NCBI GenBank assembly: GCA_046483985.1
Contig: JAWOCD010000108.1
Span: 1-30,286, forward strand
Reading direction: 5' to 3'
Length of the DNA stretch: 30,286 nucleotides
From: Promethearchaeia archaeon
GTDB taxonomy: Archaea; Asgardarchaeota; Lokiarchaeia; Sigyniarchaeales; SOKP01
Part shown: piece by piece, positions 7,587 through 26,577 of the stretch
How positions within the stretch are numbered: position 1 is the stretch's first letter
Layout of the letters: the number at the start of each line of letters is the position of its first letter
Notes under the pieces: generated by a model
Databases searched by the model: none
Seen by the model: only the letters and a program-made list of their open reading frames with translations
What the model was told of the DNA's origin: nothing
Translations under genes and position numbers: made by a program

Positions 7587-9026
7587 TTAGAGCAAATAGG
7601 TGTTGTGATACCAATCTTCAAAATTTTCAAAGCGCTCGGATTTATACTCTTTTAATAACTCTCCGTTGGCATCTTCCTCGATTTTCCTAAAAAGTTTCTC
7701 ATATATTGATTCGTTTCCCTCTATAATATTGGTATTCCATTCTGGATCATCCCTCAGATCAAATAACTTTCTATCCTTCTTGGTATTCCTTGTAATGAGG
7801 GCATATTTATCGTCTTTATAGGCCGTCCATAGACTCATTCCACAAGTCATGTAATCTCTGCCCTCAAGTACTGCATCGGTATTATCCACGAAAACGGAAA
7901 GATCTTTTCCCTCAACTTTTTTTGGCTTCTCTTTTCCAAGGAAGCCGTAAATTGTTGCTAATAAATCGTGATCATATACATAGGAATTATCAATCCGAAT
8001 GGGTCCATTTATATTACCAGGGGGTTTTATTATTAACGGGATATCGATTAATTCGGGATACATAAATTTTGGCACCTTTCCAATCGCTCCATGCTCGCCC
8101 AAGCCATGCCCGTGATCGCTAATTAAGATAATTAACGCATCTTCATAAAATTCCAACTCTTTTAACTGATTGATGAAATAACCGAACCACGCATCACATA
8201 AGGAAACTTCTCCAGCATAACATGCTTTCATATTCCGTAATTCTTCTGAGCTGATCAAATTTACGCTTTCTCCATAGATTGGCAGAATAATTTTGTTTCC
8301 CGAATACTCTTTATCTTTATACAGATTATAGTAATTCTCCGGAGGATCCCATGGTTCATGCGGATCAAACTCATCAATAATACAGAAATGGTTTGCTGTA
8401 TCCTTACTTTCTTTAATTGATTGAATTGCTCTTTTAAAGGTCTTCGCGGGCATATAATCCTCCTCTGACTCCCAGTCTTGTTTATTAGTAAAATATTTCT
8501 TAAGCAGCGTCTTTTGAATGCGCAAAGCGAATCGATTCTCTTTGGTTTTCTTCGGAAGATTGTTTTTCATTAATTTATTCAGTTCTGAACGCCTTCCTTT
8601 CCATGAGGGTTTATATTTATCATATTCATGACCACGAACGAAATGCCATTCATCAAATCCTAATTGAAAGTTCATATTAGGCTTAAATTGATGATAGGTA
8701 CTTGTGATAAAGGAAGTGAGATGTCCTGCTTTATTTAAATACTCTGAAATATGGATCTGATCATGAGGGATGGGGGTCCATCCTGGGGACTCAACGAAAT
8801 CATCCGTACGCACCTTTAAATCTTGATTAAAAGGAAAAGTTCGAATTCCTGTATGAATTGCCCTTCGCACGGGGATTGTCGGTAAACTTTCTGGATATGC
8901 TTTATCAAACACAAGTGAATCTTTTGCAAATTCATCAAAATTCGGCGTCTGAATCCAATCGTTTCCATAAATCTTGCCCGTATGGTCTTTTCTAAGGGTA
9001 TCGAAGACAATAAGAAATATTTTCAT
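7587..9026 (-). CDS. Sulfatase-like hydrolase (alkaline phosphatase superfamily) with Thr at the nucleophile position
   Basis: IVFDTLRKDH, QTPNFDEFA, TIPVRRAIHTG, FDPHEPWDPP, ISDHGHGLGEHG, IPLIIK, LFDLRDDPEW. Confidence 0.88.
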   Translation of the reverse strand: MKIFLIVFDTLRKDHTGKIYGNDWIQTPNFDEFAKDSLVFDKAYPESLPTIPVRRAIHTGIRTFPFNQDLKVRTDDFVESPGWTPIPHDQIHISEYLNKAGHLTSFITSTYHQFKPNMNFQLGFDEWHFVRGHEYDKYKPSWKGRRSELNKLMKNNLPKKTKENRFALRIQKTLLKKYFTNKQDWESEEDYMPAKTFKRAIQSIKESKDTANHFCIIDEFDPHEPWDPPENYYNLYKDKEYSGNKIILPIYGESVNLISSEELRNMKACYAGEVSLCDAWFGYFINQLKELEFYEDALIILISDHGHGLGEHGAIGKVPKFMYPELIDIPLIIKPPGNINGPIRIDNSYVYDHDLLATIYGFLGKEKPKKVEGKDLSVFVDNTDAVLEGRDYMTCGMSLWTAYKDDKYALITRNTKKDRKLFDLRDDPEWNTNIIEGNESIYEKLFRKIEEDANGELLKEYKSERFENFEDWYHNTYLL

Positions 9027-9114
9027 GATTTTTTACTTTTGTATAATGAACACTTTCCTTATGAAATTATATATTTTTAAAAAACCATAATATTTTAATT
9101 ATAGATCCTTAGTA

Positions 9115-10533
9115 GTGAGACCCGTGGATCAAAATCAACAAAAAGAAAAAGGTAAATTCAACAAGAGATATCCGCTGCGGATAATCGCGTCCTATGAGCT
9201 TGGTATGCTAATTTGGATGATGATGAATCAGATTTTTGTGCAGCAAACACAATATTATTACCAAAATGTAATAGGATTAGGAGCCGGGCTTATTGCTTTG
9301 GCTTTTATCATCTATACTATCTTTAATATGTTTAACGATCCTATAATTGGACATTTCTCGGATAAATCTACCCGTTTTCGCGAAAAATGGGGAAAACGAT
9401 TTCCATTTATCATGATGGGGATAATCCCGTTCTCTTTCACCTTAATTTTTATATTTGGAGCGCCTAAAGTCAGTCAAGTCGGTCCGTTAGCTGTATTCTT
9501 TTGGTTACTCTTTTTTATATGTATGTATGATCTCTTCTTTAGCATATTTGATGTTAATCACGGAGCTTTATTCCCCGAAAAATTCAGAAATGATAAAGAT
9601 AGGAAACTGGCAGGGATGGTAGATACCATCTTGGAAACTATTGGTATTTTGCTTGGAATCGTTGTACCAATAATCATTATTGATTCAGTGGGTGGATGGC
9701 TTGGGTATTTTATTCAAGGAATTATCATTTCTATCGTTTGCTTCGTATTTGCCCTCCTTATGATTCCAGGGGTTAAAGAAGATCCAGAAGTGAAAGAGCG
9801 CTATGCGGAAAAAGAGACTCAAGAATCTATTGAGTTCTTCACGGGGATGAAATCTGCCATAAAGGACAAAAATTTAATTGGATTCATGTGTCTTTACACT
9901 GCATATGCAACCACCATGGGTATTCTTATTGCATCTGTTCCCTACTTCGTGGACGATATTTTACACTTGCCAAAGACTGGAGAATTGGTCTTGATTGCTT
10001 ATTTGGTTGCTGTACCTATAACAGCTGGCATATGGTATAAACTTTCGTTTAAAATTGGAATAAAAAACGTTACCCTTATTGGTGCTATCATTCTCTCCTC
10101 TATGGGGTTACCTCTATTATTTGTACCCGCGGACCCCAGCGGATTAGCCCTTTTTTTGATTGTATTATTTTTGGCGGGATTAGTAGATGGAGCAATAATT
10201 AGCATGAAATTTCCGGTATTTTCTAGTATTGTCGATGTGGCAACTATTGAGTCAGAGAAACATGAAGAAGGGTTATACAAGGGGATCTTTACCTTTTTTC
10301 AGAGACTGGGTATTACCATCCGAGTTGTTATTTTTTGGATAGTCCAAGCACTCAGCGGATATGACCCTACCACTCCGAATACTTCAGCAGAATTATGTGG
10401 ATTACGTATTCAAGTTTCTATAATCCCTATGATTATTATGTTCTTTGGAATTGTTATTTTCTGGAGATTTTATCAAATCTCTCGCTCAGATTTAGAGAAA
10501 AATTTAGAGGAATTGGACAAGATGGGTTTATGA
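9115..10533 (+). CDS. MFS transporter, glycoside-pentoside-hexuronide (MelB/GPH) family
   Basis: About 12 TM helices; NDPIIGHFSDK, WGKRFPF, ALFPE, EGLYKGIFTFF. Confidence 0.88.
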   Translation: MRPVDQNQQKEKGKFNKRYPLRIIASYELGMLIWMMMNQIFVQQTQYYYQNVIGLGAGLIALAFIIYTIFNMFNDPIIGHFSDKSTRFREKWGKRFPFIMMGIIPFSFTLIFIFGAPKVSQVGPLAVFFWLLFFICMYDLFFSIFDVNHGALFPEKFRNDKDRKLAGMVDTILETIGILLGIVVPIIIIDSVGGWLGYFIQGIIISIVCFVFALLMIPGVKEDPEVKERYAEKETQESIEFFTGMKSAIKDKNLIGFMCLYTAYATTMGILIASVPYFVDDILHLPKTGELVLIAYLVAVPITAGIWYKLSFKIGIKNVTLIGAIILSSMGLPLLFVPADPSGLALFLIVLFLAGLVDGAIISMKFPVFSSIVDVATIESEKHEEGLYKGIFTFFQRLGITIRVVIFWIVQALSGYDPTTPNTSAELCGLRIQVSIIPMIIMFFGIVIFWRFYQISRSDLEKNLEELDKMGL

Positions 10534-24754: not shown

Positions 24755-26230
24755 TTATATATTAAACAGATCGAAACCGCTAAAAAGGCGATCCGCAAGG
24801 GATTCTGCTTCGCTAAAGGTACTGATTATTTTATCTTTTTCAATTAGAGGAATTTTTACCCCTTGAACTTGAAGGCTGTTAATTACTTTTAATCCGCTAA
24901 ACTCCGCTACTATCCCATCCTCCTCTTTATAATCCATATGAAACTCTGCTGTGAGTTTTCCCCTTATTCTGGCGCCAGCTGATACCTTATATTGGTTTCC
25001 TCTCTTATCCGATATAAGTCTTGTTTCCCCAATCCGTACTGTAACATAAGTTTTTCCTTGTTGGCGTATTTTTTCAATTTTACGGGTTTGATAATTAACA
25101 TCCAAGGCAGAAATATGTTGTTCTCGTTGTAATTTACCTGTAGGGAGATATTTTATTTTAATTCCGAGATAATCTTGGTATTGGGAAGTCTGATCAACCC
25201 AATTAGTGAGACTTTCGCTCAAACTATCTTTTCCTCCATTCTCTCTTTTAAATGTCGAATCTCTTCCGTGTGCAATTGCAGTTTCTACATTGTCTTGATG
25301 ATAAGGATCCAATAATATTTCTCCCGTCTGATTTAAGTATAAGGCATGGAGGGCTGATACACAACATAAATATGCAATATCAAGGACATCCTCGATCTTA
25401 TGCTGTGCATCAATAATTCTTACCTCTACTCGATTTCGAGTGGGGGACTCATCTTTATCATCCCCAATATTGGTAAAAGGTCCGCGCGGAGTGATATCTA
25501 CTAAGCGGTCTCCACTGGAGTTGGTAATTACCTTCTTTGAGAATTCATCGTCAGTGGTTGAACCGATCTTTAATTGATATCTCATTCTCCCGTAGTATCT
25601 CATGGGGACGAGCGCCGGACGATTTTCGGGCACCTTAATTTTTGCGGGGTCATTTCTCTTAAGGACCGTGCTATTGGCGCATCGATTACTCGCAATATTA
25701 TTTATTTTTCCCTCATATATAGGAGAATTTGCCGTGATCGCTATTAGTTCAGGAAGATAATTCCAAAGATAATTATTAACCGCTTTTAATTCTCCTGGTT
25801 TCATTAAGTTACCTTTTTTCTGTACGGATACATTTATATGCGTACCTACAATCGGATGAGGGTCACTCTGAATGGGATGGAGACTCTGTGCAAAAAGTTT
25901 GACTCCTAATTGGTCGGCAGCATCTTGAAGCAATTTTCTTCCCGCTTTCGTAGCTTCTTCCAAGTCTATTGGAGATAAAGGAAGTGTCACGTATTCAATT
26001 TGGGCGGGATTGGGCTCCGCATCAAGCCCACGAATTTGTACTTGGAGCGTATCCAATAAATCTGGTCTATTTTCAAGAATCTGGGCAGCAGTTTTCATTA
26101 ATTCATCGGCAGCCTCTACTAAGGAACCATCCCCGTTCACCAAAAGAAATTCTTCCTCAATTCCGCATAATACTTGGTATTTTTCGTAAAACTTCTGGTC
26201 AATTTCTTTAGTTTTATTATGAAAAAACAT
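24755..26230 (-). CDS. Glutamate-cysteine ligase family (GCS2/YbdK-like) carboxylate-amine ligase with C-terminal extension
   Basis: GIEEEFLLV, E-x4-QIE, HP, GTHINV, LPELIAITANSP, ASNR, DITPR, RVEVRIID. Confidence 0.85.
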   Translation of the reverse strand: MFFHNKTKEIDQKFYEKYQVLCGIEEEFLLVNGDGSLVEAADELMKTAAQILENRPDLLDTLQVQIRGLDAEPNPAQIEYVTLPLSPIDLEEATKAGRKLLQDAADQLGVKLFAQSLHPIQSDPHPIVGTHINVSVQKKGNLMKPGELKAVNNYLWNYLPELIAITANSPIYEGKINNIASNRCANSTVLKRNDPAKIKVPENRPALVPMRYYGRMRYQLKIGSTTDDEFSKKVITNSSGDRLVDITPRGPFTNIGDDKDESPTRNRVEVRIIDAQHKIEDVLDIAYLCCVSALHALYLNQTGEILLDPYHQDNVETAIAHGRDSTFKRENGGKDSLSESLTNWVDQTSQYQDYLGIKIKYLPTGKLQREQHISALDVNYQTRKIEKIRQQGKTYVTVRIGETRLISDKRGNQYKVSAGARIRGKLTAEFHMDYKEEDGIVAEFSGLKVINSLQVQGVKIPLIEKDKIISTFSEAESLADRLFSGFDLFNI

Positions 26231-26304: not shown

Positions 26305-26577
26305 TTAAAAATTATATTGATGATGTCTAAAATTGTCTACGGGCTTTCTATATTCATACTCTATGTTATCTACTCGGGCTAATCGTGGACCTTCTTTGGC
26401 AAATTCTAACAATTCTTCCAATCGTTCTTTGGGACCTTGAGCCTCTATGTGAACGCTCCCATCAGACATATTTTGAGCGTAACCCTCCAACCCTAACTTT
26501 CTGGCGGTTTTCTTCGTCGAATATCGAAAGAAAACCCCTTGTACGCGACCTTCAACATCAATTACAATTCGCTTCAT
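26305..26577 (-). CDS. acyP: Acylphosphatase
   Basis: GRVQGVFFR, GYAQNMSDGSV, GPRLARV. Confidence 0.95.
   Translation of the reverse strand: MKRIVIDVEGRVQGVFFRYSTKKTARKLGLEGYAQNMSDGSVHIEAQGPKERLEELLEFAKEGPRLARVDNIEYEYRKPVDNFRHHQYNF

Follow-up and report, generated by a model that had tools for sequence, protein, structure and literature searches.

A subfamily of archaeal YbdK-type ligases with a C-terminal domain of its own and a constant glutamyl-amide-cleaving partner

What does a carboxylate-amine ligase make when it is larger than its relatives and stands beside enzymes that could undo its work? The question is raised by the 30,286-nucleotide (nt) contig JAWOCD010000108.1 of a Promethearchaeia archaeon (GenBank assembly GCA_046483985.1; positions 1 to 30,286, forward strand; hereafter the window), an AT-rich stretch with a GC content of 36%, in which one minus-strand gene encodes a ligase of 491 amino acids (aa). 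An earlier note on this DNA, made from the sequence alone, had called the ligase atypical in architecture and had proposed that an open active site and an extra binding domain suited a macromolecular acceptor, as in PafA. We find that the architecture is indeed atypical, and that the ligase and its relatives form a distinct archaeal branch of the YbdK-type ligases, marked by a C-terminal domain of its own and by an obligatory pairing with an enzyme that would remove glutamyl groups. The macromolecular acceptor was not established, as the C-terminal domain has no significant fold match and the partner families are known for small glutamyl amides. Judged from sequence, structural models and analogy, the protein would instead be a gamma-glutamyl-amide ligase within an attach/remove module, a reading to which we assign a probability of roughly one half.

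The gene is real, because it is represented by 171 full-length homologues and by 79 loci from a scan of archaeal assemblies in which one genome per species was taken; the host genome, which is archaeal, 4.06 Mb long and 97% complete, holds a single copy. The sole Pfam match of the protein at E-values up to 0.01 is PF04107 (GCS2), which scores 38.6 bits against a cut-off of 21 and covers aa 128-183 only. The NCBIfam equivalog models for YbdK and GshA-type enzymes all fall far under their cut-offs (best TIGR02050, 55.2 bits against 176.4), and a PDB sequence search with the single protein returned no significant match. Sequence identity to YbdK is only 16-19%; hhalign nevertheless pairs the ligase with E. 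coli YbdK at a probability of 95.7% over aa 20-356. The AlphaFold2 model, made from an alignment of 30 sequences, some down to 27% identity, has a predicted local distance difference test (pLDDT) score of 89.6 and a predicted template modelling score of 0.86. A structural search with the full protein, which the earlier note had suggested, confirmed the YbdK fold: the nearest solved structures are those of YbdK from E. coli and its Salmonella homologue (1r8g, 1tt4; PF04107), with Z 31.8, a root-mean-square deviation of 2.6 A, 305-306 aligned residues and Foldseek E-values of about 1e-16 to 2e-16. Further matches are plant glutamate-cysteine ligase (GCL; Z 25.9), Dop (20-21), GshA (about 20), PafA (18.7) and glutamine synthetases (about 18).

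Within the catalytic domain the motifs GIEEEF (aa 23-28), QIEYVT (E79), GTH (H131), ASNR (R183) and NRVEVRIID (aa 266-274) are conserved, and G23, E25, E27, E79, H131, R183, E269 and R271 are invariant even when E. coli YbdK is included; these comprise the GhExE motif, the metal and ATP ligands and the RxExR motif. Since the fold is YbdK-like and GhExE, E79, H131, R183 and RxExR are all retained, the protein is predicted to be an intact, ATP-dependent carboxylate-amine ligase of the YbdK/GCS2 type. Current annotations call family members no more than 'hypothetical' or 'glutamate-cysteine ligase family protein', apart from two database entries (P0061, P0063) named 'putative metal-dependent hydrolase of the TIM-barrel fold', a name that the fold found here contradicts. 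We found nothing specific in the literature on this ligase family, on pairs of GCS2 enzymes with N-formylglutamate-amidohydrolase-like (FGase) enzymes or on gamma-glutamyl systems of Asgard archaea.

The catalytic domain differs from that of YbdK in three places. Between HP and GxH the ligase has 9 residues, as the earlier note had estimated, and E. coli YbdK has 32, somewhat more than the 25-30 that the note had given for YbdK/GCS2; hhalign places a gap of 23 residues there. The note had taken the short connection as a sign of an open site, a view that the comparisons do not support. The same short spacing occurs in GCS2 proteins of ordinary size (P0147, P0148, P0155 and P0158, of 320-364 aa) and, as HPKPLKGDWNGAGCH, in glutamine synthetase, all of them enzymes of small molecules, so that it is, by alignment, not peculiar to the 491-aa form. 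It is also the most conserved segment of the ligase, with H118, P119, S122, P124, P126, G129 and H131 invariant in 30 sequences. On both grounds the short loop, taken alone, does not speak for an open site; it has the look of a fixed part of the active site and not of a deletion by which the site was opened. Its residues and spacing resemble the HPKP...GxGxHxNxS motif of glutamine synthetase, with a local profile match to 3fky (E 0.003) in the shared HP...G-x-H-x-N-x-S pattern. Glutamine synthetase belongs to the same superfamily, but the ligase lacks its N-terminal beta-grasp domain (the catalytic sheet of the model starts at aa 18), has no Pfam glutamine synthetase match and is closer overall to YbdK and GCL.

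The second difference is the basic, beta-like insert after ASNR that the earlier note had pointed out, which is modelled as a beta-hairpin at aa 206-221 (DSSP strands 206-212 and 215-221) and is missing from YbdK, P0155 and P0158 in the alignments; Y212, Y213, G214, R217 and Y218 are invariant within the Asgard clade. The third is a second family-specific insert that carries the motif TPRGP and is missing from the same three proteins, with R249, G250, P251, N254 and D258 invariant across alignment A2. Together these three elements (loop, YYGRMRY hairpin and TPRGP insert) would reshape the acceptor side of the active site.

Beyond the catalytic domain the ligase departs from YbdK as well. The alignment to YbdK stops at aa 356 (residue 326 of the 372 in YbdK); where YbdK continues with about 46 helical residues, the ligase has a linker and a beta-rich domain of 108 aa, so that a two-domain protein of 491 aa stands against a single-domain one of about 370 aa. 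The earlier note had put this domain at about 120 aa and had quoted from it the string KTYVTVRIGETRL...KLTAEF, which lies at aa 393-430; its ordered part is slightly shorter. Rather than an unconserved or disordered tail it is a confidently predicted unit (pLDDT about 90 within the full model and 91 for the isolated domain), mildly basic, and kept to its end in all full-length relatives, down to 30% identity. Thus the domain is predicted to fold well by itself, but the structural search with it that had been suggested gave no significant match: Pfam and PDB sequence-profile searches returned nothing significant, Foldseek against the PDB found nothing below E 0.1, and VIA-align against 48,161 chains reached at best Z 4.6, under the usual noise level. 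Its weak, sub-noise VIA-align neighbours are mostly SH3-like small barrels (SH3b, WYL, KOW and Sm). An exhaustive HMMER search of 1.84 billion representative proteins turned up just 39 related clusters, none of which has the domain in another architecture. Database sequences that match nothing but this domain (P0139, P0141 and others) come from contigs of 0.6-1 kb and may be stand-alone domains or fragments. Because alignments of the full model to YbdK, GCL, GshA and Dop extend to about aa 440, part of the long hairpin of the domain may take the position that a C-terminal element has in those enzymes. The domain is kept in every member whatever the partner enzyme, and for this reason it is unlikely to be a dock for the partners; more probably it is a module of the ligase itself, which recognises a common substrate or serves in oligomerisation.

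In the window the ligase gene is followed co-directionally by genes for a gamma-glutamylamine cyclotransferase (GGACT) and for a class I glutamine amidotransferase (GATase), and this order recurs in distant Asgard genomes (coordinates of all features are given in Table 1). The YGTL and GEVY motifs of the GGACT are conserved, and the GATase has an intact Cys-His-Glu triad (LGVCFGHH, QFHPE) and passes the cut-off of PF07722 (Peptidase_C26; 24.2 bits against 20.5). From these motifs both partners look catalytically competent and of the hydrolase type. When ligase and class I GATase were co-folded, the score was 0.00 without controls, which is evidence neither for nor against binding.

Table 1. 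Position of the ligase, its parts, its partners and related features; positions without a locus name refer to the window.
Feature	Size or residues	Position	Strand	Evidence or remark
Ligase open reading frame (P0001)	1476 nt, 491 aa + stop	24755..26230	minus	Open reading frame list and translation
Catalytic YbdK/GCS2-fold domain	aa 1-356	25163..26230	minus	Structure match, hhalign, invariant columns
Short HP...GxH connection, HPIQSDPHPIVGTH	aa 118-131	25838..25879	minus	23-residue gap against YbdK
Basic/aromatic beta-hairpin insert, KIKVPENRPALVPMRYYGRMRYQLKIG	aa 197-223	25562..25642	minus	DSSP strands; family-specific, YYGRMRY conserved
Second family-specific insert (TPRGP), TPRGPFTNIGDD	aa 247-258	25457..25492	minus	Invariant residues; missed in the earlier note
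Variable linker	aa 357-376	25103..25162	minus	pLDDT 79 and 69; least conserved part of the ligase
C-terminal beta-rich domain	aa 377-484 (about 108 aa)	24779..25102	minus	Eight strands, two helices, long hairpin 421-455
GGACT/AIG2-like gamma-glutamylamine cyclotransferase	114 aa	24372..24716	minus	PF06094 E 9e-19; 38 nt downstream of ligase
Class I GATase / peptidase C26-type thiol hydrolase	265 aa	23549..24346	minus	PF00117 E 5.5e-20; 25 nt downstream of GGACT
ATP-grasp neighbour		L113:873-2042, L112:772-2034, L114:4493-5713, and 12 more loci	plus (the three named)	
FGase-histone fusion		L020:446-1303, L030:3960-4871, L032:6626-7471	minus, minus, plus	PF00808 E 2e-9; NF043032 67 bits against cut-off 50
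Dehydratase-like pair with activase, example		L002:2515-5912 and 8620-9975		

Among the 79 loci, every ligase with enough flanking sequence adjoins an enzyme that cleaves glutamyl amides. The partner is GGACT with a class I GATase in 33 loci, a class I GATase only in 11, GGACT with a class II, N-terminal-nucleophile (Ntn) GATase in seven, GGACT only in four and an FGase in 21, and three loci are cut by a contig end; GGACT takes a window-like position in 40 of the 79. The class II enzyme begins with MCRLL and weakly resembles EgtC, and the two GATase classes interchange at one operon position. Four non-homologous removers (FGase, GGACT, class I and class II GATase) therefore stand beside the ligase in one locus or another, and the constant elements are a glutamine-synthetase-fold ligase and an enzyme of a type that cuts amide bonds at glutamate. 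Read most simply, the ligase would build a glutamyl amide, and the partner would later take the glutamyl group off again.

In this scheme the ligase would phosphorylate a carboxylate, most likely the gamma-carboxylate of glutamate as in gamma-glutamylcysteine ligases, and transfer it to an amine, with a glutamyl amide as the result. The product in the clade of the window is most probably a gamma-glutamyl compound, since GGACT needs a free alpha-amine, and its acceptor would be a small amine or amino acid. The GGACT would then free the glutamyl group as 5-oxoproline and the C26-type GATase as glutamate, so that the trio may serve as an attach/remove module, with the gamma-glutamyl group as a transient handle, or in turnover. 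Such pairs are familiar. In PuuA/PuuD, EgtA/EgtC and BtrJ/BtrG the ligase adds a gamma-glutamyl group that is later removed by a class I GATase-fold enzyme (PuuD), a class II Ntn enzyme (EgtC) or a GGCT-fold enzyme (BtrG). All three types of remover are found beside the archaeal ligase; the likeness is one of remover type and logic, and whereas the clusters of the known pairs encode tailoring enzymes for the intermediate, none is adjacent in the window. A candidate for a step between attachment and removal comes from other genomes: in 29 closely related loci with GGACT and a class I GATase (from among L044-L110) a 2-hydroxyacyl-CoA-dehydratase-like pair (HGD-D twice) lies directly upstream of the trio, joined where the flank allows by a BcrAD/BadFG activase. 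The pair is absent from the window. In two loci of a Heimdall/Thor-labelled genome pair (L098:4460-6043, plus strand, and L092) a 4-alpha-glucanotransferase gene (GH77) lies between ligase and GGACT.

The presence of GATases also admits a glutamine-dependent amidoligase, in which the GATase would be a glutaminase subunit that feeds ammonia to the ligase, which in turn would amidate a phosphorylated carboxylate, on the model of GatB/GatE with GatA/GatD or of MurT with GatD. The intact triad, the GS-like HP-GxH motif and the exchange of class I and class II GATases at one position, which brings to mind GatCAB and GatDE with their non-homologous glutaminase subunits, all fit such an enzyme. Yet 25 of the 79 loci have no GATase (21 have an FGase and four GGACT only), the scheme gives GGACT no role, and the GATases lean toward hydrolysis, the class I form scoring above the Peptidase_C26 cut-off and the class II form being nearest to the hydrolase EgtC. 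We consider this arrangement very unlikely.

A published counterpart of the gene neighbourhood is an Amidoligase_2-type 'new CAL' family of bacteria, in which a ligase of the glutamine synthetase fold lies beside a GATase-like thiol peptidase or an AIG2 cyclotransferase, and which was read as serving peptide or metabolite synthesis and not protein tagging (Iyer et al. 2008; PMC2588565). The archaeal ligase likewise adjoins a GATase-like thiol peptidase, an AIG2-family cyclotransferase or both: the two stand together in the window and in 33 other loci, and 22 more loci have one or the other. The two nevertheless differ: the 'new CAL' ligases are bacterial, of GCS2-like size and of a separate sequence family, whereas the archaeal ligase has the extra C-terminal domain, its deep clades use an FGase partner with or without an ATP-grasp ligase, and PF12224 (Amidoligase_2) gave no match to it at E up to 0.01, where GCS2 alone is reported.

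All of the named homologues come from Asgard archaea (with the labels Promethearchaeota, Loki-, Hermod-, Hod-, Thor-, Odin- and Heimdallarchaeota) and match over their full length at 51-82% identity. The 79 loci are mostly Asgard as well and include Sif-, Borr-, Njord- and Baldrarchaeota; a few come from metagenome-assembled genomes (MAGs) of Methanobacteriota or Methanopyri at 38-41% identity, and more distant ones, at 30-32%, from Methanodesulfokora (Korarchaeia), Geothermarchaeota and Nitrososphaeria. Their ligases all measure 460-500 aa and align through the C-terminal domain, and the family is confined to archaea. Only 44 of 301 sampled genomes of the phylum carry the gene, which is thus an accessory one. 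Ligases partnered by GGACT or a GATase are at least 51% identical to that of the window, and all 21 with an FGase are at most 47% identical. When 46 ligases were placed on a maximum-likelihood tree, those linked to GGACT or a GATase fell into one clade (SH-aLRT 99), which under midpoint rooting is nested among FGase-linked ligases, so that on this tree one switch of partner type suffices. Several FGase partners weakly match poly-gamma-glutamate hydrolase, and in the deepest clade FGase and ligase have a third conserved neighbour, an ATP-grasp ligase of about 390-420 aa whose best matches, all sub-threshold, are MptN, RimK, YheC/D, TTL and glutathione synthetase (GshB). This neighbour occurs in Njord- and Baldrarchaeota, other Asgard families, Methanodesulfokora and one Nitrososphaerota MAG and is missing from the clade of the window; with the ligase it forms a GshA/GshB-like arrangement of two ligases.

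That arrangement bears on a more ordinary explanation, namely that the enzyme is a synthetase of gamma-glutamylcysteine or a similar low-molecular-weight thiol, with GGACT and GATase as the degradative half of a gamma-glutamyl cycle and the extra domain used for oligomerisation or regulation only. The ligase does match GCS2/YbdK and GshA-type profiles, the ATP-grasp neighbour matches glutathione synthetase models, and a GCS2 match was also found in the Haloferax volcanii control genome, gamma-glutamylcysteine being the main thiol of haloarchaea. Against a thiol synthetase, the YbdK and GshA equivalog models score far under their cut-offs (for example 55 bits against 176), the acceptor side is rebuilt by loop, hairpin and TPRGP insert, and the patchy distribution fits an accessory function better than a housekeeping thiol. 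We regard it as improbable.

A protein or peptide acceptor, in line with the macromolecular one that the earlier note favoured, is possible and is not the reading that we prefer. On this view glutamate or another carboxylate would be joined to a protein residue, by PafA-like ligation or by glutamylation; the SH3-like barrel and the basic hairpin would hold the substrate, the hydrolases would be erasers, and the ATP-grasp enzyme of the deep clade would lengthen the tail. Hints toward it come from sister clades. In Sifarchaeum, Borrarchaeum and related genomes, a Heimdallarchaeota locus among them, the FGase partner carries a C-terminal domain that is a bona fide archaeal histone fold, a fusion of which we know no description, and in one Heimdallarchaeota locus (L029) an MTH865-like domain is found where other FGases carry the histone fold. 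The RimK and TTL families matched by the ATP-grasp neighbour are protein glutamylators. The C-terminal domain is ordered, present in all members, mildly basic and nearest, at sub-noise scores, to SH3b, WYL, KOW and Sm barrels; the basic and aromatic hairpin is conserved; and the window holds a writer and erasers with no intermediate enzyme. The ligase also has the superfamily fold of PafA and Dop (Z 18.7-21), which likewise have an additional C-terminal domain and follow a logic of ligase plus remover.

The PafA comparison fares less well on inspection. YbdK (Z 31.8) and GCL (25.9), both small-molecule ligases, are structurally nearer to the ligase than Dop or PafA, and fold searches with the C-terminal domain gave no PafA match, all of its structural matches being under noise (best Z 4.6). 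PF03136 (Pup_ligase) matched neither the ligase at E up to 0.01 nor anything in the whole genome, PF05639 (Pup) had no match in the 97%-complete genome, and no conserved small open reading frame adjoins the ligase. The removers beside the archaeal ligase are enzymes unrelated to it, whereas Dop is a paralogue of the ligase that it opposes. GGACT, C26 hydrolases, EgtC and FGase families act on free small molecules, and the short loop is no sign of an open site. Modification of proteins or peptide tails is in our judgement unlikely. A fuller version is less probable still: archaeal glutamylation of proteins or peptide tails in which the ligase is the writer and holds the protein by its SH3-like domain and basic hairpin, the RimK/TTL-like ATP-grasp enzyme of the ancestral module elongates, an FGase-type enzyme (a distant relative of carboxypeptidases) erases, the histone-fused eraser is directed to chromatin proteins, and GGACT with GATase later replaced the eraser in the Loki/Heimdall-type clade.

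Several of these observations weigh against a gamma-glutamyl-amide ligase of metabolism. A ligase accompanied only by enzymes that undo its work is also what marks writer/eraser pairs for macromolecules, PafA/Dop for example; the window has no candidate middle enzyme beside the ligase, and the dehydratase link is limited to a single set of related genomes. Known small-molecule GCS2 enzymes offer no parallel to the conserved extra domain, and a histone domain on the FGase partner is hard to square with a purely metabolic enzyme. Moreover, FGase-type hydrolases cut at the alpha-amine of glutamate and GGACT requires that amine free on a gamma-glutamyl group, so that the chemistry may differ between clades. 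The ligase nonetheless agrees with YbdK in fold, in the GhExE, His and RxExR residues and in a passing GCS2 score, and differs from it in its fixed context with glutamyl-amide hydrolases.

Some further observations concern the locus and the family. Upstream of the ligase the window has genes for an acylphosphatase (26305-26577, minus strand, 74 nt from the ligase) and an alanine dehydrogenase; adjacency of an acylphosphatase to a ligase expected to form an acyl phosphate is probably coincidental, because it is not kept in other genomes. Two further FGase genes of the host genome adjoin no ligase. The host also has a second, very distant GCS2-like paralogue of 600 aa (G000:C24:49317-51119, equal to L005:652-2454, plus strand), 27% identical to the ligase over 257 aa and matching PF04107 at 21.5 bits, which has a protein of 649 aa without assigned family on one side and a weakly matching Amidohydro_2 protein on the other. 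Two genomes have the ligase split into two open reading frames (L111:2691-4318, G195:C35:14750-16359; 288+254 and 289+297 aa), which may reflect a frameshift, gene decay or assembly error. A ligase of the clade of the window, 51% identical and with a class I GATase neighbour, occurs in a MAG labelled Bathyarchaeota (L093, WJJB01000469.1), which suggests mis-binning or lateral transfer out of Asgard archaea.

Three properties set this family apart: a rebuilt acceptor site, a private C-terminal domain that matches no solved fold, and a constant glutamyl-amide-cleaving partner whose type was swapped once. Whichever reading holds, the family shows cleanly how the 'eraser' of a conserved module can be replaced by a non-homologous one. 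All three proteins of the trio are small and soluble, so that the question can be put directly in vitro. Identification of the product would reveal a new pathway of gamma-glutamyl metabolites or handles or, less likely, a system of protein glutamylation in the closest prokaryotic relatives of eukaryotes.

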